Of a DNA stretch of 64,000 bases, positions 28,259 to 39,743 are shown piece after piece; within the stretch, counting starts at the first letter, position 1; every line of letters starts with the position of its first letter. This stretch comes from Lysobacterales bacterium (lineage in GTDB: Bacteria > Pseudomonadota > Gammaproteobacteria > Xanthomonadales > Rhodanobacteraceae). Made by a program: the position numbers and the translations under genes. The notes below the pieces were generated by a model that was not told the DNA's origin, searched no databases, and was given only the letters and a program-made list of their open reading frames with translations. The stretch covers positions 8,067 to 72,066 of the forward strand of contig JBBRBU010000014.1 of assembly GCA_038205505.1 (NCBI GenBank), given 5' to 3'.

Positions 28259-31090
28259 GTGAATCAATTGATCTTGCGCAAGCACTGGCTCTTGCGGAGC
28301 CTTGCTGCTGTCGTGATGGCAGCCAATGTCGCCGCGTTGGCTGATAACGACGACGAGGGCCGCGACGAAAGCTGGCAGATCGAGCAGCGCCAGCTTTGGT
28401 TCGTCGAATCGAGGGGGCTGCTCGAACACCCCGAAGCCTCACGTCTTCGCGCAGATGCGGTCGGGGAGCTGAAGCGCCAGCGTGAATGGCTGGATCCCGC
28501 GCGTGTCGCCAGCGGCGAAGTATGGGAGGAGCTCGGCCCCTCATCGATGAACATGGTCGATTGGGCCATGGGCCGCGTGGCCGGACGTCTCAACGCGATC
28601 GCGCCGCTACCGGGCAACGATGCAACGGTCTATGTCGGTGCGGCGGCAGGCGGCGTCTGGAAGACCACGAACGCCGGACTGAGCTGGGCACCGATCTTCG
28701 ACCAAGTTGGCACCCTGCCGATCGGCGCGATCACGATCGATGCGGCCACGCCGGACATGATCTGGGTGGGTACCGGTGACAAGAACAGCAGCTGTGGCGA
28801 CTACTTCGGCCAAGGTGTGTTCCTCAGTGAAGACGCCGGCGCGACCTGGAGCCCACGCAATGGCAGCGCGCCGACTGCAATGCCGTTGTCGATCGTCAAC
28901 GCAGTGGCAATCCAGCCCACCGACAGCAACGTGATTCTGGTTGGCGGTGCCGGCAGCTGCAGCAGCAGTGGAAATCTGTCAGGGGCCGGCGTCTGGCGCT
29001 CGGTCGACAGGGGCCTGAACTGGGCCAAGGTGCTCGGCAACAACGTCGAGGACATCGTGTTTGTCCCCGGAACATCGACGGTCTACGCGGGCCTGATCGG
29101 TCCTGGTGTGCAGAAATCCACTGACGGCGGTGCGACCTGGGCCGCGGCGAATAGCGGACTCAATATCACCGGCTCGCGACTGCGCCTCGCGATGGCGCCG
29201 AGCAACAGCAACATCCTTTACGTACTCGCGGGCTCAAAATTGTTCCGCAGCGATGATGGCGGCTCAAACTGGGTGCAGAAGAACGGCTCGGCTTGCGAGG
29301 GCCAGTGCAGTTACAACCAGGCCATCAGTGTGCATCCGACCAATTCGGACACCCTGCTTGTCGGCACCATCCGTGTGGCCCGCTCCATCAACGCCGGCGC
29401 CACGATCACGCCGCTGGTCAGCGGCTGGGGCAGCGCGCAGAAAGTGCATCAGGACACTCATGTCGTGCGCTATTCCCTCAGCAATCCGGATCGACTCTGG
29501 ATTGGCAGCGATGGCGGCATCTGGCGCAGTGACGACAGTGCGGCTACGTTCCGCAACATGAACGCGAATATCAATATCACCCAGTTCTATGACGTTGCAG
29601 TGGATCCGAACGACGCCAACATCGTCTTTGGTGGCGCCCAGGACAACAGCTCCTCGGGTCGTCGTACCAACCTGTTATGGAATCTGACCTACGCCAGTGG
29701 CGACGGTTTCATGAACGCGTTTGACCAGAACGATCCGAATATCGTTTTCCAGACCAGCTATCCGAATGGAAGCCGACCGAGCATCGTGCGCTCGGTGGTC
29801 GGCGGATCGCCGGGCAGCTTCAGTGGCGTTTCGAATACCGGAATAGCGTCAGGACCATTCGAGTGGGTCACGCCGCTGGCCACGGCGGGCAGCCAGCTAT
29901 TCGTCGCTTCAGACGTGCTCTACCGCCGAAGTACCGGCAGTGGCAGTTGGGCGGCGATCAGCGGTTCTCTCGGCAGCGCAGCCGTGGTCATCACGCCGCA
30001 GGCGCTCGGTACCCTGACGCCGACCTGCATTGGCACCAGGAACGGAAAGATCTGGGCAAGCCCCGATGCCGGTATCCCGTCGCCGGTTTTCATTGATGTC
30101 ACCGGCGACTATCCGGGCGGGCGCGTCTCCGATGTGGCGATGGATCCGGCGGACCCGCGAATTGTCTTTGTCACCCGTGGCGATTTTGGTGCATCGCGCC
30201 TGTATCGCTCGACGACCGGTGGCGGAACATGGGCGGCTGTTGGTGCAGGTTTGCCAAACGTGCCGGCAAATTCGGTGGCGATCGATCCGCTCGACAGTAC
30301 AAGAATCTTTGTCGCCACCGATGTCGGCATCTACGAAAGCACCGATAGCGGTGACAATTTTGTCGCGTTCTCTGCGGGTTTGCCGCTTGGCATTGTCGTC
30401 TCCGATCTGGAAATCGACGACTACCCGCATGTTCTCACCGCCGCCAGCTACAGTCGCGGCGCGTGGCGCGTCCTGCTCGCCGGCAGTGTCGGCAATGCGC
30501 CACCGACCGCTGATTTCAATGTGGTCGCCAATGGCCTCGACGCGACCTTCACCGATGCCTCGATCGATATTGACGGCAGCATTGTCGATCTCGTCTGGGA
30601 TTTCGGTGACGGCAGTGAAACGTCAATTGAGGCAAGTCCGATGCATGCCTATCCGGCGCCCGGGAACTACACGGCAAGCGTGACCGTTACTGACAACGGT
30701 GGCCTGAGTGCCAGCTACGGCAGGATCGTGCGCTTCTCGGCACCGCCAGTCGCGCTCGTCAACGGGGTTGCCATGACCAACCAGGTCGCGTCCCAGGGCG
30801 ACGACGTCTACTACACCCTGCAAGTGCCATCGAACGCAGTCAGCCTGCATTTCGAAACAAGCAGCCCGGTCGGCGGAGCCGATGCCGACCTGAAGGTCGA
30901 GTTCAATGGAGAAGTACTCTGCCAGTCGGCAGGCGCATCCTCATCCGAGCAATGCAATTTCCCGACGCCGGCAGCAGGCACCTACACGGCTATCGTCAAT
31001 GCCTATACGGCGCTGTCCAACTTCACGATACTCGGCAGCTTCACGGCACCGGCCGATGCGATCTTTGCCGATGGATTCGAAAATCCCTGA
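28259..31090 (+). CDS. Secreted BNR/Asp-box beta-propeller protein with PKD and PPC-like domains; C-terminal DAIFADGFE
   Basis: About 9 Asp-boxes (e.g. KSTDGGATW, RSDDGGSNW), PKD motif WDFGDG...HAY and a PPC-like tail. GTG start with SD agggg. Confidence 0.85.
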   Translation: MNQLILRKHWLLRSLAAVVMAANVAALADNDDEGRDESWQIEQRQLWFVESRGLLEHPEASRLRADAVGELKRQREWLDPARVASGEVWEELGPSSMNMVDWAMGRVAGRLNAIAPLPGNDATVYVGAAAGGVWKTTNAGLSWAPIFDQVGTLPIGAITIDAATPDMIWVGTGDKNSSCGDYFGQGVFLSEDAGATWSPRNGSAPTAMPLSIVNAVAIQPTDSNVILVGGAGSCSSSGNLSGAGVWRSVDRGLNWAKVLGNNVEDIVFVPGTSTVYAGLIGPGVQKSTDGGATWAAANSGLNITGSRLRLAMAPSNSNILYVLAGSKLFRSDDGGSNWVQKNGSACEGQCSYNQAISVHPTNSDTLLVGTIRVARSINAGATITPLVSGWGSAQKVHQDTHVVRYSLSNPDRLWIGSDGGIWRSDDSAATFRNMNANINITQFYDVAVDPNDANIVFGGAQDNSSSGRRTNLLWNLTYASGDGFMNAFDQNDPNIVFQTSYPNGSRPSIVRSVVGGSPGSFSGVSNTGIASGPFEWVTPLATAGSQLFVASDVLYRRSTGSGSWAAISGSLGSAAVVITPQALGTLTPTCIGTRNGKIWASPDAGIPSPVFIDVTGDYPGGRVSDVAMDPADPRIVFVTRGDFGASRLYRSTTGGGTWAAVGAGLPNVPANSVAIDPLDSTRIFVATDVGIYESTDSGDNFVAFSAGLPLGIVVSDLEIDDYPHVLTAASYSRGAWRVLLAGSVGNAPPTADFNVVANGLDATFTDASIDIDGSIVDLVWDFGDGSETSIEASPMHAYPAPGNYTASVTVTDNGGLSASYGRIVRFSAPPVALVNGVAMTNQVASQGDDVYYTLQVPSNAVSLHFETSSPVGGADADLKVEFNGEVLCQSAGASSSEQCNFPTPAAGTYTAIVNAYTALSNFTILGSFTAPADAIFADGFENP

Positions 31091-31174
31091 AGCCCTTTGC
31101 TGTCGAAGGAAGAAATTCGCGGCAATCATCTGAAGCAAAAATCAATCCGCCGCCTACTCAAGCCACGACTTGAC

Positions 31175-31220
31175 GCGTCGATGGCAGGGTTTTCCGCCGC
31201 ACTACGAATGACCCCATGAA
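31175..31220 (+). promoter_or_regulatory. Putative ECF-type promoter motif TGGCAGGG-N15-CGAATGAC (copy 1)
   Basis: Two blocks identical to those at 33839-33869, with the same 15-nt spacer length but a diverged spacer sequence. Confidence 0.55.
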
Positions 31221-31272
31221 GCGCCCTGATCCGCATGCTCGCGGTTCGGCGACCAACCGGGAGTCACTCAGC

Positions 31273-33522
31273 ATGAAAACGAATTGCAAGCTCGCGATAG
31301 CCGCGGCCTTGTCCGCATTGCTTTTCACGGGCGCGGCGAATGCCGCCACTTTCACCATCAGCACTACCGCAGATGACGCTTTTGCGCACGATACCAATCC
31401 CGGAAACGGCATTTGCATTGACGCGGGTGGTGCTTGTTCGCTGCGTGCCGCGATTGAAGAAGCCAACGCACGTGCCGGGATCGACACGATTCTTTTCTCC
31501 AATACATTTGTCAATGCGACCGTGACTCTGAGCGCGGCGACAAACGAGGGCCCGTTGCCGCCGATCACGGACAAGGTCAATATCCTCGGCATCTCGATCG
31601 ATGCCTACAACTCGAATGCCACGTTGCTGCGCGACGCACCACCGCAGTTTTTCATCAACGGCAGCAACCTGACAGGCAACGCCAGCGGGCTGATTTTCTC
31701 CGGTGCCGGTGCTTCCAGTAGCATCATTTCCGCGATCGGCATCATCGGCTTTCCGAGCCACGGCATCCTTGCGGCCTTTGGTGCCGACAATCTGATCATC
31801 GAGCGCAATTACATTGGCAATCGGGCGAATGGTTCTGCCGCCGGCAACGGTGGCCATGGCGTCTACGCGGCCAGCAGCGGCGGGCACCGCATCGGCAAGG
31901 TGCGCAACGGCGGCAACACCGCGTTCACCGGTCTCGGCAATGTGCTGTCGTCCAACGGCTTGTCCGGGGTCCGCCTCGAGTCCTCGAATGGCAACGACAT
32001 GCGCGGCAACCTGATCGGCATCTCGCCAACGGGTACCAGCGATCGCGGCAATGGCGCGTATGGCATCCAGATCAGTGGCACCGACAACGACATCGGCGAT
32101 TACCTCGCCGCCTCGAGTGCCGGCAACTACATTACAGGCAACAACCTCGGTGGCATTTTCTCGGTCGGCAACAGCAATCGTTTCTATGCCAACACCCTGG
32201 GCATTGGCGAAACCGGCGGCTTCATCACCAGTGAACTCGATGGCATCGTCATCATCGGCAACACCAATTTCATTGGCAACAGCGGCTTGGGCAGGAACAA
32301 GATCGTCGAGCATGCCGGTTCCGCAATCCGCCTCGGCGCAACGGCAGGCACGGCGGCCAACAGCAACTTCGTGCTCAACAACGAGATTGGCAGCTCCGGC
32401 TCGCAGTTTCCGATTCTGCTTTCCGGCAACGGAGCAGGTATCTACGTCGCCAAGGGCAATACCAATGCGATTCTCAACAACGTCGTCATCAACTCCACGG
32501 GCAGTTCCGCGCCGAGTCTGTTTGGCGACGGCATTGATGTGCGTGGCGACGGCAACACGATTTCCGGCAATCAACTCGGGTTCGTCACCTCGATATCCGG
32601 GCCTGTCGCCGAGCCGAACAATCAGGGAATCCATGTGGTCGGCAACAACAACACGATCGGCAGCAGCGACAGCCGCAACCAGGTCGGCGGCAACCACGGG
32701 ATTGGCATCGGAGCGTCGGGAAATGGCAATGCGGCCCGATTCAACTATGTAGGCGTAACCAGCGCTCTTGACGAGGTCGGCAATGGAACCGTCGGTCTGC
32801 AGATGAGCGATGGGTCCGGTATCGGCGTGGAAGGCAATATCGTCGGCAAGAACCTGGTCGGCGTGCTACTTGCCAATGTCATCGACAGCCCATTGATCAT
32901 CGGCAACTACATCGGCGTCAAACCCTCCGGCGGCAACATCGGCAACGCCGGCGACGGCCTGCGCATCATCAATTCCAGCAACAGTGACGTGCAGCAGAAT
33001 CGCATCTCATATAACGGCGGCAACGGCATCGTCACCAATGAAAATGTACTCGGACTGGCCTGGTTCCAGAATCGCATGCACAGCAACGGCGGCATCGGTA
33101 TCGACCTCGGCTTCGATGGCATCACGCCGAATGACGCTGGCGATGTCGATGTCGGACCCAACCGCCTGCAGAATTTCCCGATAATCCAGCAGGTCATTCT
33201 CGACAGCGTTGCCTTTCCACCCACACTGACGATCAGCTACCGCGTGGATTCGAATGCGGGCGCATCCGTCTACCCGCTGTTCGTCGATTTCTACTGGAGC
33301 GACATGGACGAACCCGCCCAGGGGCGCTTCTTCCTCGGTACCGATTTCAACTATTCAACACCGAATGCATTGCGCACGGTCACCTTGAATTTCGTCGATG
33401 GCGTGCCGGGTGGCTGGTTGACTGCAACCGCTCTGGATCAGGATCGCAATACCTCGGAGCTGGCCGCACGCTTCCAGTTCGGCAATCCGTTCGACAGGAT
33501 TTTCGCGAACGGATTCGAATAG
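31273..33522 (+). CDS. Secreted CSLREA-domain parallel beta-helix protein; C-terminal DRIFANGFE
   Basis: Signal peptide, CSLRAAIEEAN, Gly/Asn/Ile-rich beta-helix repeats and DGITPND...GPNRLQNFP. Confidence 0.85.
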   Translation: MKTNCKLAIAAALSALLFTGAANAATFTISTTADDAFAHDTNPGNGICIDAGGACSLRAAIEEANARAGIDTILFSNTFVNATVTLSAATNEGPLPPITDKVNILGISIDAYNSNATLLRDAPPQFFINGSNLTGNASGLIFSGAGASSSIISAIGIIGFPSHGILAAFGADNLIIERNYIGNRANGSAAGNGGHGVYAASSGGHRIGKVRNGGNTAFTGLGNVLSSNGLSGVRLESSNGNDMRGNLIGISPTGTSDRGNGAYGIQISGTDNDIGDYLAASSAGNYITGNNLGGIFSVGNSNRFYANTLGIGETGGFITSELDGIVIIGNTNFIGNSGLGRNKIVEHAGSAIRLGATAGTAANSNFVLNNEIGSSGSQFPILLSGNGAGIYVAKGNTNAILNNVVINSTGSSAPSLFGDGIDVRGDGNTISGNQLGFVTSISGPVAEPNNQGIHVVGNNNTIGSSDSRNQVGGNHGIGIGASGNGNAARFNYVGVTSALDEVGNGTVGLQMSDGSGIGVEGNIVGKNLVGVLLANVIDSPLIIGNYIGVKPSGGNIGNAGDGLRIINSSNSDVQQNRISYNGGNGIVTNENVLGLAWFQNRMHSNGGIGIDLGFDGITPNDAGDVDVGPNRLQNFPIIQQVILDSVAFPPTLTISYRVDSNAGASVYPLFVDFYWSDMDEPAQGRFFLGTDFNYSTPNALRTVTLNFVDGVPGGWLTATALDQDRNTSELAARFQFGNPFDRIFANGFE

Positions 33523-33831
33523 ATCGAGGGGCGGCGCATTCGATCAGCCTGCAAGCGTGCGCGGTAGAGGATTTGCAAGGACTTCGCGGGGCAAAGGCCT
33601 CGCTGACCCTGCCGCCCTGCGTGGATTCATTGGGCGGCGATTCCTGGCGACCCGAGACAGACTCGGGTCGTCCGCGCGGCTCTGCAGTGAAAGCCAAAAA
33701 CAAAGTCAGCGGGCCCTGCCGGCGCCGGCGCCGGGGTGACGCGGGGTGGAAATAAGAGCAGATCCCGGATCTCCGCATTCCGAAAATCGCTTTGACCGCC
33801 GTCCCGCGGCTGCATCCGGTGACAACCAGCA

Positions 33832-33877
33832 GTGTCAATGGCAGGGTTTCTCGCCTATTTCCGAATGACTCCCTGAA
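33832..33877 (+). promoter_or_regulatory. Putative ECF-type promoter motif TGGCAGGG-N15-CGAATGAC (copy 2)
   Basis: gtgtcaatggcagggtttctcgcctatttccgaatgactccctgaa versus gcgtcgatggcagggttttccgccgcactacgaatgaccccatgaa. Confidence 0.55.
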
Positions 33878-33928
33878 TACCCCGATCGGCCGCAGGCGCG
33901 GATCGACCTGACCCAAGGAGTTTTTCGG

Positions 33929-36169
33929 ATGAAAACCACGTTGCGCTTTCTGGTCGCCTCGTTTGGCCTGATGCTGGCCACGTCTGCCGCCGCATCGACC
34001 TTCACGGTCGATACCCCCATCGACGATACCGATGCCCATGATGCCAATCCGGGAGATGGCATTTGCCTCGATACGCTCAATGCCTGCCCGTTGCGCGCGG
34101 CGCTGGAGGAAGCCAATGCGCACGCGGGGCCCGACACGATTCTTTTCGCGAGCAACTGGGTCGACCAGACGCTGGTGGTCAGCGCTCTGGCCGGACCGCT
34201 GCCGGCGATCACCGACCGCGTGTCGATCCTCGGAACATCGATCTTGAGTTACAACGGTGGGGCCACGTTGCTGCGTGATGCACCGCCGATGGTCTTCATC
34301 GATGGCAGCCAGTTGTCGAATGCCGGCGACCATGGCCTGGTCCTCACGGGCGTAGGGGCGGGCGACAGTATCGTCTCCGCGATCGGGGTCGTCGGATTTC
34401 CTGGCGACGGCATCCGCACCACAACCGGCGTCTACAACCTGCGCATCGACCGCAACTACATCGGTGTTCGCGGCGATGGAACGCCGGCAGGTAACGGTGG
34501 CCATGGCGTGCATTCCTTCAACAGCGGCCAGAACCGGATCGGCAAGTCCGTCAACGGCGGCGGCACCGGCTACGTGAGCCTGGGCAATGTCATATCGGCC
34601 AATGTCCGCTCCGGTGTGCGTCTGGACGGCTCTTTCAACAATACACTTCACGGCAATCTGATCGGCATAGCACCGTCAGGCGATGCCGATATGGGCAACG
34701 GCGAATATGGCGTACACATTACCGGCGGAAACAACACCGTAGGCGACTTCATCGATGCCAACAGCGGCGGCAACTACATCGCGGCCAACGACCTCGGTGG
34801 AATCCAGGCTGACGGCGACGCCAATCGCATCTACGCCAACACCCTCGGGCGAGGAGAGACGGGCGGTTTCATTGACAGCGAATGGGCCGGCATTGTCGTG
34901 GTCGGCAATGCCAACACCATCGGCAGAGCGGGCCTGGGCCGCAACCGCGTTGTCCATCATCAGACTTCGGCGATCCGTGTCGGACTCCAGGGCGCGCCTT
35001 CCAGCAATGACAATGAGGTCGCCTACAACGAGCTCGGCAGTTCCGCAGCCGGTTCACCGGCAAATTTTTCCGGCAATGGCGGCGGCATCAATATCGCCAA
35101 CGGCAGCGAAAACGTGATCACCGGCAACCGTGTGATCAACGCGCTGGGCAACGCCGCAGTGGGTATTACCGGCGTCGGCGTCTTCGTGCGTGGCGACGCC
35201 AACACGATCACCGACAATCGGCTCGGATTCGTCGATTCCGTCGCCGGCCCCGTTGCCGAGCCCAACCAGCTCGGCCTGGTCGTGATCGGCAACGGCAACA
35301 TCATCGGCAGTGTCGGCAAGGGCAATCAGGTTGGCGGCAACAGCGGCTACGGTATCGGCGCATTCGGCGACAACAATTACGTGCATTTCAATTTCATCGG
35401 CGTCGATAGCGCGTACGCGCCGATCGGCAACGGCGGCGCCGGCCTCGTCTTGCAGGCGGGATCCGCCTTTTCGGTGCGCGAAAACGTCATCGGCGCCAAT
35501 AGCGGCGGCATGATACTCAACAGCGTCAGCAACAGCCCGCTGATTTTTGCGAACTGGATCGGAACGACGCCAAGTGGCGGCAATATCGGCAATGCGCTGG
35601 ACGGCATCCGCATCGAGGATTCCAACAACATCGATGTCCATTCGAACCGCATCGCGTTCAATGTCGGCAATGGCATCGCCACCGGCAGCAACGTCAGTGC
35701 GATCGCCTGGTTCCAGAACCGCATGTACGGCAATGGCGGCATCGGCATTGACCTCGGCGCAGACGGCATCACACCCAACGATCCCGGTGACTCTGACGAA
35801 GGTCCGAATCGTCTGCAGAATTTCCCGATCATCCAGAATGCCGTGCTCGACACCGTGGCCGTACCACCAACCCTGACCATCAGCTACCGGGTCGATTCGA
35901 ATGCCGGTACCGCTGGCTATCCCATGTTCGTCGACTTCTACTGGAGCGATGTCGATGAACTGGCCCAGGGAAGATTTTTCCTCGGCACCGATTTTGGCTA
36001 CAGCACACCGAATGCAATACGCACGGTCACCCTCGGTTTCGTCGACGGCGTGCCGGGTGGCTGGCTCACGGCAACGGCTTTGGAGCAGAACAGGAATACT
36101 TCGGAGCTGGCTGCAAGATTCCTGTTCGGCAATCCGTTCGGCAGGATATTTGCTGACGGATTTGAATAG
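33929..36169 (+). CDS. Paralogous secreted CSLREA-domain beta-helix protein; C-terminal GRIFADGFE
   Basis: CPLRAALEEAN. Collinear similarity to 31273-33522 over the full length, with a near-identical C-terminal ~110 aa. Confidence 0.85.
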   Translation: MKTTLRFLVASFGLMLATSAAASTFTVDTPIDDTDAHDANPGDGICLDTLNACPLRAALEEANAHAGPDTILFASNWVDQTLVVSALAGPLPAITDRVSILGTSILSYNGGATLLRDAPPMVFIDGSQLSNAGDHGLVLTGVGAGDSIVSAIGVVGFPGDGIRTTTGVYNLRIDRNYIGVRGDGTPAGNGGHGVHSFNSGQNRIGKSVNGGGTGYVSLGNVISANVRSGVRLDGSFNNTLHGNLIGIAPSGDADMGNGEYGVHITGGNNTVGDFIDANSGGNYIAANDLGGIQADGDANRIYANTLGRGETGGFIDSEWAGIVVVGNANTIGRAGLGRNRVVHHQTSAIRVGLQGAPSSNDNEVAYNELGSSAAGSPANFSGNGGGINIANGSENVITGNRVINALGNAAVGITGVGVFVRGDANTITDNRLGFVDSVAGPVAEPNQLGLVVIGNGNIIGSVGKGNQVGGNSGYGIGAFGDNNYVHFNFIGVDSAYAPIGNGGAGLVLQAGSAFSVRENVIGANSGGMILNSVSNSPLIFANWIGTTPSGGNIGNALDGIRIEDSNNIDVHSNRIAFNVGNGIATGSNVSAIAWFQNRMYGNGGIGIDLGADGITPNDPGDSDEGPNRLQNFPIIQNAVLDTVAVPPTLTISYRVDSNAGTAGYPMFVDFYWSDVDELAQGRFFLGTDFGYSTPNAIRTVTLGFVDGVPGGWLTATALEQNRNTSELAARFLFGNPFGRIFADGFE

Positions 36170-36266: not shown

Positions 36267-39047
36267 ATGATGCACGATGAGGATGTCAGCCAATGGCAGA
36301 AGGCCGTGGCTTTGTATCGCGACGTGCTGGCCTTGTCGGAGAAAGATCGCAAGCGCCGGATCGACACCCTGGACGAGCCGGCCGACGTGATCGCGAAGCT
36401 CGAGCAGTTGCTGCGCGCCACGCAGGCCGGGGAGGCAACTCCGATTGAGGAAAAGGTCGGCCGCCTGATCGAGAGGCTGGGCCGCGAGACCGATGAGGGC
36501 GATCCATCGGATTTCGGCGCCGAGGCCATGCTCGGCCGCGTCATTGGCAACTGGACCGTAATTCGCGAGCTGGGCCGTGGTGGCATGGCGACGGTGTACC
36601 TGGTCAAGCGCAACGATGTCGCATTCGAGCAGTACGGTGCACTGAAACTGCTATCACTCTTGATGCTGGCCAGTGGCGGTGCCGCGCGCTTCGAGCGTGA
36701 GCAGCGACTCCTCGCACGCATGCACCACCCGAACATCGCAATGCTGCTGGATGGTGGCGTGGCCGCGGACGGAACTCCGTACCTGGTCACCGAACTCGTG
36801 GAAGGGCCCGACCTGCGCACGTATTGCGAGCGCGACGGGCTCGGTGTTCGCGACGTGATCAATCTTTTGCTGCAGGTTTGCGCCGCGGTCAGTCATGCGC
36901 ACGGCAACCTGATTCTGCATCGCGACATCAAGCCGTCGAATGTCATGGTGACCACCGACGGCCAGATCAAACTGGTCGATTTCGGCATTGGCAAGCTGGC
37001 CGAAGAAGCCGCCGAAGGCACCCAGACCAAGGTGTTCACGCCGAAGTACGCGGCCCCCGAGCAGCTCAGCGGCGCGGCTGTGACCACGGCGACTGACGTG
37101 TACGGACTCGGAGTTCTTGGCCGCAGCCTGCTTGGCACACCCATCCCGGGCCAGCGCGAACTGGACCGAATCTTCGACATGGCGACGCGCGAGGAAGCAT
37201 CGCGTCGATACGGCAGCGTGGAGAGCCTGGCGCGTGATCTGCGCAACTGGCTTGAGGATCGACCGATCGCCGCTGTCGCCGATTCAGCCCGCTATCGCGC
37301 ACGCAAGTATCTGAGCCGCCACCGCGGTGGCGTGGCCGCGCTTGTCGCCATCGTGTTGACCGCTGTTGCAGGCCTGGCGCTTGTCCTATGGCAGGCCCGA
37401 CAGACGCGCGAGGAACTGGCTGTATCCGAGCGTACGACGCAATTTCTCGTGCAACTGTTCGATCAGGCCGATCCTGTGGTTGCCAAGGGCTCGCCGACCA
37501 CGGCCCGCGATCTGCTCTCCCGAGCGCGCAACTCGCTGACGACCATCAACGACAACAAGGTTCGCAACCGGCTCGTCATCGCCATTGCCCAGGCGTACTA
37601 CGGCATGGCCGATTTCAAGGAGTCCGTGCAAATCCTGCAAAATGAATTGTCGGGGCCGATTGCCGACCAGTCGATCGATGTGCAGTTGCTGTTGGCCCGG
37701 TCAAGCTTTGAGAGCGGCCAGACTGCCGAGTCGATTGGCTTTCTTGAAGCCATGAATCCTCCGCCGGAGAGTGCCTACCGGGTGCATGGCCTGCTGGGAC
37801 GATATTTGAGTTCGGATGGGAAGTTCGAGCGTGCCGACAAGGAGCTGGCCACCGCGCGCGCAGCGTTGCCAGCCGCGGGCTCCGCTCCTGATGTGATCGG
37901 CATTCTCGCCGCGGTGGCACGCAACGATATTCGACAGGCCCGCTACGCCGAATCGCTGCTTGTACTCGAGCAGGCGCTTGCGCAGGCAAGAAACGCACAA
38001 TTGCCGTTGGAGGAAGGCAAGATCGAGCAGATGCATGCGCAAGTCGCCAACATCCAGGGGCGGCATGCCGATGCTCTGACACATACGCAGCGGGTACGCG
38101 AACTGTTCGCGCCGATCTACAGCGAGGATCACAGCGCGATGATCGAGCTCGACAACAAGGAGGGAGATATCCTGAAAGCCCTTGGCAGGCATGCGCTTGC
38201 CGTGGAAACGCTCGAACGCGCGGTCGGCAATGCACGCCGCCACATGGGTGACAGCGCGACAACGTCCAACGCGCTCAACTCCCTGAGCATGGCCTATGGC
38301 GCGGCGGGAAATCTCGAAGCGGCCATCGCCACGGGTCTGGAGGTCAATGAAATCCTGATTCGACTGGGCGATGCCGATCATCCGATCCGTGCAAACGTGC
38401 TTGGAAACGTGGCGGATTATCAGATCGATGTCGGAGATCTCGAAGGCGCCGAGACGAGCCTGGCCGTCGCCCGAAGTATCCTCGCCGATACCCTGCCTCC
38501 CAGTCACCCGGTTTCGATTCATGTGGAGTATCAGGTGCAACGCATTGCCATTCGGCGCGGAAACATCGAAGTCGCATTGAATCGACTCACCGAACTGGCA
38601 CCGATGGCACAAAAGGCGCCGGGACCTGGCAATGGCCTGACCCTGTCGATACTCAGCAGTGCCGGCCGACAGAACCTGCGCCTGGGACGGATCGACGAAG
38701 CAATAGGCTGGTTTGAGAAAGCCAGGAACGGGTCGCGCTCACTTGGCGAGGACTCCAGGCGCTATCTTGGCGCAAGCGCCGATCTGGCAGAGGCGACACT
38801 GGCAGCAGGAAGTGTCGACAAGGCGCAGAGCCTGCTGCAACCCGTGCTGAGGGCGCGCGACTCGGCGATTCCCGATTTCGAGGCCGGCCTGCGCTTGCGC
38901 GAATCGCAATTCGCCCGGCAGCGTGGCGACATCGTTGCACAAAAGGCACTGCTGGATTCTGCACTGGAGCTGATGCCCGAGGGCTCACCGCTACGAGCCG
39001 ATTGGGCACCCGAGATTGCGGCGCTTTCAAAATTTCAAGCTGACTGA
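36267..39047 (+). CDS. Hanks-type Ser/Thr kinase with a TM segment and C-terminal TPR-like repeats
   Basis: GRGGMATVY, ALKLL, HRDIKPSN, DFG, TPKYAAPEQ and DVYGLG. TM at ALVAIVLTAVAGLALVLW; helical repeats follow. Confidence 0.92.
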   Translation: MMHDEDVSQWQKAVALYRDVLALSEKDRKRRIDTLDEPADVIAKLEQLLRATQAGEATPIEEKVGRLIERLGRETDEGDPSDFGAEAMLGRVIGNWTVIRELGRGGMATVYLVKRNDVAFEQYGALKLLSLLMLASGGAARFEREQRLLARMHHPNIAMLLDGGVAADGTPYLVTELVEGPDLRTYCERDGLGVRDVINLLLQVCAAVSHAHGNLILHRDIKPSNVMVTTDGQIKLVDFGIGKLAEEAAEGTQTKVFTPKYAAPEQLSGAAVTTATDVYGLGVLGRSLLGTPIPGQRELDRIFDMATREEASRRYGSVESLARDLRNWLEDRPIAAVADSARYRARKYLSRHRGGVAALVAIVLTAVAGLALVLWQARQTREELAVSERTTQFLVQLFDQADPVVAKGSPTTARDLLSRARNSLTTINDNKVRNRLVIAIAQAYYGMADFKESVQILQNELSGPIADQSIDVQLLLARSSFESGQTAESIGFLEAMNPPPESAYRVHGLLGRYLSSDGKFERADKELATARAALPAAGSAPDVIGILAAVARNDIRQARYAESLLVLEQALAQARNAQLPLEEGKIEQMHAQVANIQGRHADALTHTQRVRELFAPIYSEDHSAMIELDNKEGDILKALGRHALAVETLERAVGNARRHMGDSATTSNALNSLSMAYGAAGNLEAAIATGLEVNEILIRLGDADHPIRANVLGNVADYQIDVGDLEGAETSLAVARSILADTLPPSHPVSIHVEYQVQRIAIRRGNIEVALNRLTELAPMAQKAPGPGNGLTLSILSSAGRQNLRLGRIDEAIGWFEKARNGSRSLGEDSRRYLGASADLAEATLAAGSVDKAQSLLQPVLRARDSAIPDFEAGLRLRESQFARQRGDIVAQKALLDSALELMPEGSPLRADWAPEIAALSKFQAD

Positions 39048-39086
39048 CGCGGCAACCTGATCAATCAAGGCGCTTCCGCAAACCTC

Positions 39087-39635
39087 TCAGGGCGCAAGGC
39101 GGGCGTCAAGAAACGCGCGGGCACAACTCCAGTCACGATGCAGGCTGCGCTCGGAACGACCGGTCAGTTGCGCAATCTCATGCATCGACATGCCGGCGAA
39201 ATAACGCAGGTTCACGAGTTCGAGCAGGCCTGGATCGATCTGTTCGAGCTCGTCCATCGCGGCATCGAGGGCAAGCAACTCGGTATTGGTTTCGGAACTG
39301 GCAACGTCGACGCGATCAAGCGTGACAAAGGCGGCGTCGCCACCGCGTTTCGCCGATGCTGATGCGCGCGCGGCATCGATCAGGATCTGGCGCATCGCCG
39401 CGGCGGCGCAGGCGAAGAAATGCTGACGACTGAGCAGATCGAGTTTCGCCGCGCCGACCAATTTCAGGTACAGCTCGTGGACCAGCGCAGTGGCGGTCAG
39501 GGTCGAGTTCGGCGCGCTGCTGATCCGACTACGCGCCAGGATCTTCAACTCGGCATGCAGGCGACCGAAGACTTCATCAAGCGAATGCTTGGTCCCCGTT
39601 GCCGCCTTGCCCAGCAGTTCGGTGATTTCTGACAC
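39087..39635 (-). CDS. ECF sigma factor of the kinase-associated type (TALVHE motif)
   Basis: ITELL, TLTATALVHELYLKL, AMRQILID...AKRGG and sigma4 LRYFAGMSMHEIA. GTG start with SD ggagg. Confidence 0.9.
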   Translation of the reverse strand: MSEITELLGKAATGTKHSLDEVFGRLHAELKILARSRISSAPNSTLTATALVHELYLKLVGAAKLDLLSRQHFFACAAAAMRQILIDAARASASAKRGGDAAFVTLDRVDVASSETNTELLALDAAMDELEQIDPGLLELVNLRYFAGMSMHEIAQLTGRSERSLHRDWSCARAFLDARLAP

Positions 39636-39743
39636 GCGCATCCTCCGGGCTGCAAAGCGGTGCACAAAGGCACGAACTAAAGCAGGTAGATGGTCAAATT
39701 GGGCCCCGTCCGGCCAGACTAACACCACACGCGTCCGCCTCAC

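Follow-up and report, generated by a model that had tools for sequence, protein, structure and literature searches.

Why would three neighbouring genes for exported proteins of two unrelated folds all end in the same short peptide? This question is raised by a 64,000-nucleotide stretch of DNA, here called the window, from a Lysobacterales bacterium of the Rhodanobacteraceae (assembly GCA_038205505.1, contig JBBRBU010000014.1, positions 8,067 to 72,066 of the forward strand), in which three genes share a C-terminal peptide referred to here as the GFE tail or tag. The tail, D-x-[ILV]-F-x-[D/N/S]-G-F-[E/D], is a portable terminal tag on Sec-exported enzymes and adhesin-like proteins in most Lysobacterales. 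It is found nearly always at the extreme C-terminus, occasionally right after the signal peptide, and is lineage-restricted. From its spread over the proteome and the order, its position in homologues, where sorting signals are found, a concerted residue change in the genus g18 and the flexible tail of an AlphaFold2 (AF2) model, we infer with moderate confidence that it is a linear address or docking tag, which would be read by one co-evolving envelope partner after Sec export and serve secretion or surface retention.

The tail in the window and across the genome

The ends of the three open reading frames (ORFs), translated from positions 31055-31090, 33493-33522 and 36140-36169, read DAIFADGFENP, DRIFANGFE and GRIFADGFE, each followed by the stop codon (Table 1). 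A preliminary description of this DNA had pointed to this shared tail on three neighbouring ORFs, to N-terminal signal peptides on all three products and to the lack of a transmembrane (TM) helix or basic stretch in the tail, and all of this was borne out. Translation revealed credible Sec signal peptides with predicted cleavage (marked by a slash) at VNQLILRKHWLLRSLAAVVMAANVAALA/D in protein 1, MKTNCKLAIAAALSALLFTGAANA/A in protein 2 and MKTTLRFLVASFGLMLATSAAA/S in protein 3, and neither a TM helix nor a basic tail was seen when the tail sequences were inspected. Protein 1 has Pfam matches to PF15902, PF18911, PF00801 and PF04151. Proteins 2 and 3 are 61% identical, and an upstream ATG at 31216 is a possible alternative start of gene 2.

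The proposal of a portable module, carried by unrelated folds, also holds, both for the two unrelated architectures found here and genome-wide. The Dokdonella-like genome (4.26 Mb, 202 contigs, with the window on contig C14) was searched in six-frame translation for the pattern [ILVMF][FYW]x[DNS]GF[E/D] at most nine residues from a stop. With the GFE ending, the pattern gave 41 matches, 37 of which lay within nine amino acids (aa) of a stop. The expected near-stop share, calculated from residues at most nine from a stop in ORFs of at least 60 aa, is about 12%, and reversed or permuted motifs gave 0-1 matches in the same genome. Another 37 ORFs carried the GFD-ending motif within nine aa of the stop. 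The proteome-wide count for which the preliminary description had called is thus about 74 tagged ORFs, and the motif is not confined to the paralogues in the window. Among 32 tagged proteins scanned, 28 Pfam families were matched, including DUF5122 and other propellers, beta-helices, M28, M14 and reprolysin peptidases, Calx-beta, FG-GAP and CBM96. The signal-peptide test was passed by 23 of 27 complete tagged ORFs. Chance or paralogy as the source of the motif is ruled out by the permutation controls and the spread over 28 families.

The logo of the tail is D(74%)-R-[I/L/V]-F-A-[D/N/S]-G-F-[E/D]. The Asp at position -8 is conserved at this level although it lies outside the search pattern, and no conservation was observed upstream of it. 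Synonymous codons vary freely at every tail position and all of them are used, which places the selection on the tail at the level of the protein, not of the DNA. The same codon freedom rules out a DNA-level repeat such as a repetitive extragenic palindromic element, a terminator or a recombination site. Between GF[E/D] and the stop, a variable number of residues (0-9) is found.

The last motif residue is almost always acidic, with E and D near-equal and others rare; variants ending in K, S, A, N, Q or H gave 1-5 matches each, of which 0-1 were near a stop. Such an end would suit an intrinsic cap without any reader, protecting the protein against C-terminal proteases (Prc/Tsp) or aiding solubility or folding. 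An explanation of this kind is improbable in our view. Nine conserved positions with two invariant Phe go far beyond the needs of a cap, and related lineages with similar proteases do without the tail.

Some copies of the motif lie inside longer ORFs. One is in a linker (PDPIFANGFETPG / SAPSGPPDPIFANGFETPGAS) that joins an esterase and a GH5 cellulase domain in a 687-aa ORF on the minus strand of contig C114 (locus L034); this ORF looks like a tagged esterase fused to the downstream gene. An ORF on contig C110, open at the contig start, has two tandem tags (PLDRVYADGFDGDPDHIYCDGFEW) followed by about 100 low-complexity residues, and may be a read-through or frameshifted end. Large paralogues on contigs C18 and C23 (1359 and 1625 aa) contain an internal VVIFRDGFDP about 150 residues before the stop, which implies a further C-terminal domain after the tag.

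Distribution in Lysobacterales and beyond

An order-wide sample of 201 species genomes was searched with a DNA pattern for F-x-[D/N]-G-F-E, the counts of which were bimodal; the reversed-pattern control gave mostly 0-3 matches per strand, with a maximum of 7. Two patterns were added, one for E/D/Q/H endings and one for an Arg/Ser variant, and all three are combined in the numbers of tag-positive and tag-poor genomes that follow. At least 20 matches, the threshold for calling a genome tag-positive, were reached by 142 of the 201 genomes, and 41 had at most 10. Nearly all of family f2 and part of f1, the family of the window itself, make up the tag-poor genomes. The only exception in f2 is G136, with 75 matches to the broad pattern.

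Outside the order, 245 of 248 genomes of other gammaproteobacteria, from about 225 families, had at most five matches. This near-absence marks the short tag as a trait of the Lysobacterales. The three other genomes had 12 (G371), 13 (G435) and 8 (G271) matches, counted at any position, and those of G371 are mostly of the FADGFE/FSDGFE type.

What homologues carry at the position of the tail

Orthologues of protein 1 in Dokdonella sp. are 80-82% identical to it. The tail (...PDxIFANGF[D/E/Q]) is present on 62 of the 120 protein 1 homologues listed, the named carriers being Dokdonella sp., Dokdonella immobilis, Tahibacter amnicola and Rhodanobacteraceae. Homologues from Pyxidicoccus, Massilia, Burkholderiales and Permianibacter are tail-less and end exactly where the PPC-like domain ends, as does a tail-less paralogue in Tahibacter.

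Homologues of protein 3 keep the GFE tail within the order. Those of Myxococcota end in a PEP-CTERM-like signal (VPEP, TM helix, Arg-rich end), those of Rhodothermales, Bacteroidota, Zixiibacteriota and Neomarinimicrobiota in the C-terminal domain (CTD) of the type IX secretion system (T9SS), and those of Burkholderiales in an LPXTG-like signal (LPTTG, TM helix, Arg-Arg). Some protein 3 homologues carry a dockerin (PF00404) at this position. In Thermoanaerobaculia a 20-residue long form, VLFADGFESGSTGAWSAASP, was found, which was seen on one protein 3 homologue (L118) and on P0100. To judge from these C-termini, the tail is an add-on that sits where other lineages have their sorting signals.

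Since several of these signals work by cleavage, the tail could itself be a cleaved sorting signal, at which a PorU-like periplasmic or outer-membrane peptidase would attach the protein covalently to lipopolysaccharide, lipid or peptidoglycan. The conserved acidic end, preceded by a small residue, fits this idea, and the interdomain copy (esterase-PDPIFANGFETPG-GH5) would suit a processing site. Covalent attachment is nevertheless considered unlikely. A membrane enzyme would find neither a TM helix nor a basic tail by which to hold its substrate, the residues that follow the motif vary in number from 0 to 9, and no candidate enzyme recurs near the tagged genes. Cleavage at the copies that follow a signal peptide, described below, would moreover lose the whole protein.

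Structure of the tail

The AF2 model of protein 3 was built from 25 aligned sequences and reached a mean predicted local distance difference test score (pLDDT) of 89.9 and a predicted template modelling score of 0.87. The pLDDT of the last six residues (741-746) is below 50, and no packing of these residues on the immunoglobulin (Ig)-like domain before them is seen. In this model, the tail behaves as an exposed flexible linear peptide. Disorder of the tail in the model is also what the cap explanation would lead one to expect, as is the finding that no reader turned up in the neighbourhoods of tagged genes. Of the specific folds considered for the motif, a type I' beta-turn formed by [D/N]-G has become less likely, as some variants have Arg or Ser in place of Gly. 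The idea of a LamG jelly-roll strand 1 was followed on an internal copy with Laminin_G_3 (L061), where single-sequence AF2 reached a mean pLDDT of only 34.5.

The arginine form in g18 and N-terminal copies

Genomes of the genus g18, which may be Wenzhouxiangella to judge from the tails of protein 3 homologues given below, contain 0-6 matches to the G-form of the motif. F-x-D-R-F-E is found 12-83 times per genome in 11 of the 12 genomes (G006, G038, G047, G056, G065, G082, G090, G098, G106, G166 and G187; loci L165-L194), and once in the remaining one, the reduced 1.8 Mb genome G173. Among sampled R-form matches, 24 of 30 were at most nine residues from the stop. ELFKDRFEMP, GIFQDRFEAP and similar sequences form the ends of protein 3 homologues from Wenzhouxiangella (L093-L096, L111). 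Such a concerted change from Gly to Arg across the g18 proteome is expected if one shared reader changed its specificity, and it is hard to explain by a cap without a partner.

In three genomes, the tag directly follows the cleavage site of the signal peptide: ...GLLGTASA/DPVFKDRFELD, ...APVALG/QVIFQDRFEPG and ...SPSRA/EDVIFANGFEALP (loci L185 in G090, L193 in G047 and L064 in G131). In L193, the N-terminal tag precedes an FGE-sulfatase domain. A tag right after the signal peptide cannot be a cleave-and-transfer signal in which all that lies downstream is discarded, and the N-terminal copies argue for a docking peptide over a cleaved tripartite signal. They also cannot protect a C-terminus, as a cap would have to.

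Association with a second type II secretion system

An Xps-like secretin, scoring 420-490 bits on TIGR02517, is present in every genome examined. Two features marked a second type II secretion system (T2SS), termed type A: a secretin with a higher score of about 500-575 bits, and a GspL of the Pfam type. PF03934 (GspK) was of no use for recognizing a T2SS, since this model of 63 positions matches unrelated proteins and was found in 10 of 14 control genomes. The second T2SS, recognized by GspL or a matching high-scoring secretin, occurs in 131 of 142 tag-positive vs 10 of 59 tag-negative genomes, and at genus level in 43 of 51 vs 3 of 23. Within f1, it is present in 8 of 9 tag-positive genomes (not in G087) and in none of 16 tag-negative ones. 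One pair from the same genus consists of G095, tagged and with the second T2SS, and G079, untagged and without it. G136, the only tag-positive f2 genome, has a strong GspL match. G022 and G168 are apparent exceptions, but both carry the type A secretin. In the complete genome G056, the type A secretin is found in two overlapping pieces that pass the cut-off only together (G056:C1:2264937-2266622); a frameshift or a split gene may be the cause.

No GspL was detected in eight near-complete f8 genomes and in G087, all of which are above the tag threshold, and an order-specific GspL profile found none either in five f8 genomes checked further. In the f8 genomes sampled (n=5), 2-5 of 5 sampled tag matches were confirmed as C-terminal. 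Apart from G181 and G188, f8 genomes have only the Xps-like secretin. A comparable second system without tags is found in the genera g24 and g54 and in the genomes G188 and G173. The f8 genomes rule out the second T2SS as a necessary partner; the system is associated with the tag and is neither necessary nor sufficient for it. A check for a co-occurring transporter, proposed in the preliminary description, has therefore returned a strong association and a link that leaks both ways.

It has to be asked whether the tail is the cargo-selection signal of this second T2SS, bound in the periplasm by GspC/XpsN or the secretin N-domains. The co-occurrence and the contrasts within f1 and f2 speak for such a role. 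Against it stand the tagged genomes without a detectable GspL, the untagged ones with a comparable system, and the facts that at least one T2SS is present in every genome tested and that the signal is confounded by phylogeny. On balance, this specific role is rather doubtful. As all tested genomes have some T2SS, its presence as such cannot explain the distribution of the tag; export of the tagged proteins by a T2SS is plausible.

Comparison with known sorting signals

As the preliminary description had maintained, the tail fits no described system. Scans of isolated tails against Pfam and NCBIfam (release 20.0) at E <= 10 gave nothing relevant, and full-text literature searches on the motif, on Lysobacter C-terminal sorting with a T2SS and on new sorting signals returned only the known tripartite signals. 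The only near-match in NCBIfam was a sub-threshold hit to cyano_PEP upstream of the tail (E = 0.13, 12 bits vs a cut-off of 21.6). Neither a hydrophobic stretch nor a basic cluster follows GF[E/D], as would be seen in PEP-CTERM/exosortase substrates. For GlyGly-CTERM/rhombosortase, nothing was found by sequence inspection or as a TIGR03501 match at E <= 10. LPXTG/sortase motifs are absent from all tails, with no NCBIfam match. A T9SS CTD (PF18962 / TIGR04183 / TIGR04131) does not fit a conserved part of only nine residues, and no PF18962 or TIGR04183 match was found on the three proteins of the window or among the 25 most frequent families of the 32 tagged proteins. To our knowledge, the T9SS is not known in Gammaproteobacteria. 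A type I secretion signal, an uncleaved C-terminal stretch of about 50-60 residues on proteins that lack a Sec signal and usually have RTX repeats, is at odds with the N-terminal signal peptides, and no RTX repeat family is among the families listed. The outer-membrane protein (OMP) beta-signal read by the beta-barrel assembly machinery (BAM) or DegS does not fit tails that end in E/D or up to nine residues later, on propellers, beta-helices and peptidases. Ultrashort NCBIfam motifs such as the YLP-box (NF050076) gave no match in an hmmscan of five tails, assuming that the model is contained in release 20.0.

The tripartite signals (PEP-CTERM, GlyGly-CTERM, LPXTG, IPTL-CTERM and MYXO-CTERM/myxosortase) resemble the tail in being short, portable, lineage-restricted and present on many unrelated proteins with signal peptides, and PEP-CTERM-like (Myxococcota) and LPXTG-like (Burkholderiales) examples occupy its position in protein 3 homologues. 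However, they comprise 25-35 residues with a TM segment and a basic cluster, whereas the GFE tail has nine residues and neither of these. The GFE tail, unlike them, also occurs directly after the signal peptide, and no sorting enzyme was found for it. For GlyGly-CTERM cargo, export by a T2SS has been described (PMC12889589).

The T9SS CTD likewise lacks a TM segment and occurs on dozens of secreted or surface proteins that are unrelated to each other, but it is a folded beta-sandwich of about 70-100 residues with a known machine and removal by PorU, in contrast to a flexible nine-residue peptide of Proteobacteria. The long form of Thermoanaerobaculia (19-20 residues, ...LFADGFESGSTGAWSAASP) shares the F-x-D-G-F-E core and the C-terminal position with the tail; it is about 11 residues longer, has a conserved Trp and belongs to a different phylum. 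Like the tail, the long form is uncatalogued. Dockerins, like the proposed tag, are C-terminal add-ons that dock many enzymes non-covalently to one surface receptor, but they are folded Ca-binding domains of about 70 residues with known cohesins, in contrast to the peptide considered here. The C-terminal peptides recognized by PDZ domains or BAM (the OMP YxF beta-signal, DegS activation) are likewise short, Phe-rich and read in the periplasm. The OMP signal has an aromatic end and is found on beta-barrels, whereas the GFE tail has an acidic end, often extra residues, and is found on soluble multidomain proteins. The tail is classed with C-terminal sorting tags in kind and is explained by no catalogued system, and its proposed function is assigned on indirect grounds.

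Gene neighbourhoods and the kinase/sigma factor module

When the ORFs around 33 tagged genes were clustered, only signal-transduction families and pairs of kinase and extracytoplasmic function (ECF) sigma factor genes emerged. Four loci, on contigs C8, C12, C14 (the window) and C18, pair tagged genes with paralogous genes for a Ser/Thr kinase with a tetratricopeptide repeat (TPR) region and a PF07638 ECF sigma factor (Table 1).

Reading C-terminal peptides is an established function of TPR domains, as in PEX5 with PTS1 and Hop with EEVD. The tail might thus be sensed by periplasmic TPR domains of the neighbouring kinases, which would act on the ECF sigma factor as a DegS-like feedback on exported cargo. 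Besides the four loci and this precedent, tag-rich genomes tend to have many PF07638 sigma factors, with at least 10 in this genome, where scoring stopped at 15, and 0-3 in most tag-poor relatives. The count follows the tag only loosely, however: G079 has eight such factors and no tags, tag-positive f8 genomes have 0-3, and kinase/ECF loci contain only 7 of the 74 tagged genes. In addition, the topology of the TPR region is only predicted. Feedback sensing of this kind is very unlikely to be the role of the tail, and the genome distribution rules out the kinase-TPR/ECF module as an obligate reader. The module is read as regulation, not sorting.

Table 1. Positions of the tagged genes, their tails and the kinase/sigma factor loci. 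Coordinates without a contig refer to the window.
Feature	Location	Strand	Remarks
Tagged gene 1, exported Sortilin/BNR beta-propeller + PKD + PPC protein	28259..31090	+	943 aa, start GTG 28259
Sec signal peptide of gene 1, VNQLILRKHWLLRSLAAVVMAANVAALA	28259..28342	+	cleavage predicted after ALA; translation and heuristic hydrophobicity scan
GFE tail of gene 1, DAIFADGFENP	31055..31087	+	directly C-terminal of the PPC domain
Tagged gene 2, exported CSLREA/NosD-type right-handed beta-helix protein	31273..33522	+	749 aa from ATG 31273
GFE tail of gene 2, DRIFANGFE	33493..33519	+	about 10 residues past NTSEL(F)S, with which the last Ig-like domain ends
Tagged gene 3, paralogue of gene 2, CSLREA/NosD-type beta-helix	33929..36169	+	746 aa
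GFE tail of gene 3, GRIFADGFE	36140..36166	+	flexible in the AF2 model
Ser/Thr kinase, one predicted TM segment, long C-terminal TPR region	36267..39047	+	Pfam PF00069 + TPR_12; context, not tag
ECF sigma factor, PF07638 type, kinase partner	39090..39743	-	context, not tag
Kinase-TPR/ECF locus of the window	36267-39743		
Kinase-TPR/ECF locus	C8:29988-33363		
Kinase-TPR/ECF locus	C12:71175-74491		
Kinase-TPR/ECF locus	C18:22943-26093		

Proposed role and significance of the tag

In the docking-tag reading that we favour, the protein would first be exported by Sec, and its exposed tail would then be docked non-covalently by one shared envelope partner, possibly as an added beta-strand. This partner would direct or retain the cargo, for which the cell surface is the most likely place once a T2SS has carried it across the outer membrane. 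The tail would thus take the role that PEP-CTERM, LPXTG, GlyGly-CTERM or the T9SS CTD have in homologous proteins of other phyla, without a membrane-spanning part and probably without removal by a transpeptidase.

Several points weigh against this reading. The G-to-R switch in g18 could in principle reflect a shared physicochemical constraint instead of a protein partner, and the association with the second T2SS could merely reflect a large-secretome lifestyle. Clustering of the ORFs within 8 kb of the 33 tagged genes revealed no recurrent envelope protein. The signal peptides were called with a simple heuristic, and the undocked tail in the AF2 model looks as any unconstrained terminus would. 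The preliminary description had proposed a recognition signal for surface anchoring or export. A recognition signal has gained indirect support; no reader or pathway was identified, and anchoring or export is still something that we infer.

A more specific version, which we put forward only tentatively, is a natural tag-and-catcher pair with the tail as its donor half, in which one envelope receptor captures dozens of exoproteins by either terminus and co-evolves with the tag. Such a receptor could be a beta-sandwich without an edge strand, or a T2SS-associated domain. Co-evolution of receptor and tag would explain the proteome-wide G-to-R switch in g18.

Short C-terminal tags have repeatedly led to sorting machines, as for sortase, exosortase, rhombosortase, the T9SS and myxosortase. 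As the GFE tag is unusually small and has no membrane anchor, its reader is probably a new kind of partner. In most species of this large order, about 2% of the proteome carries the tag. How the T2SS or the cell surface chooses its cargo is a long-standing question, and a tag with natural G and R variants would make it testable. A possible further use is as a minimal tag for display or secretion. If the proposed capture by a receptor is true and this receptor belongs to the T2SS, the tail would give type II secretion its first linear signal for the selection of cargo.

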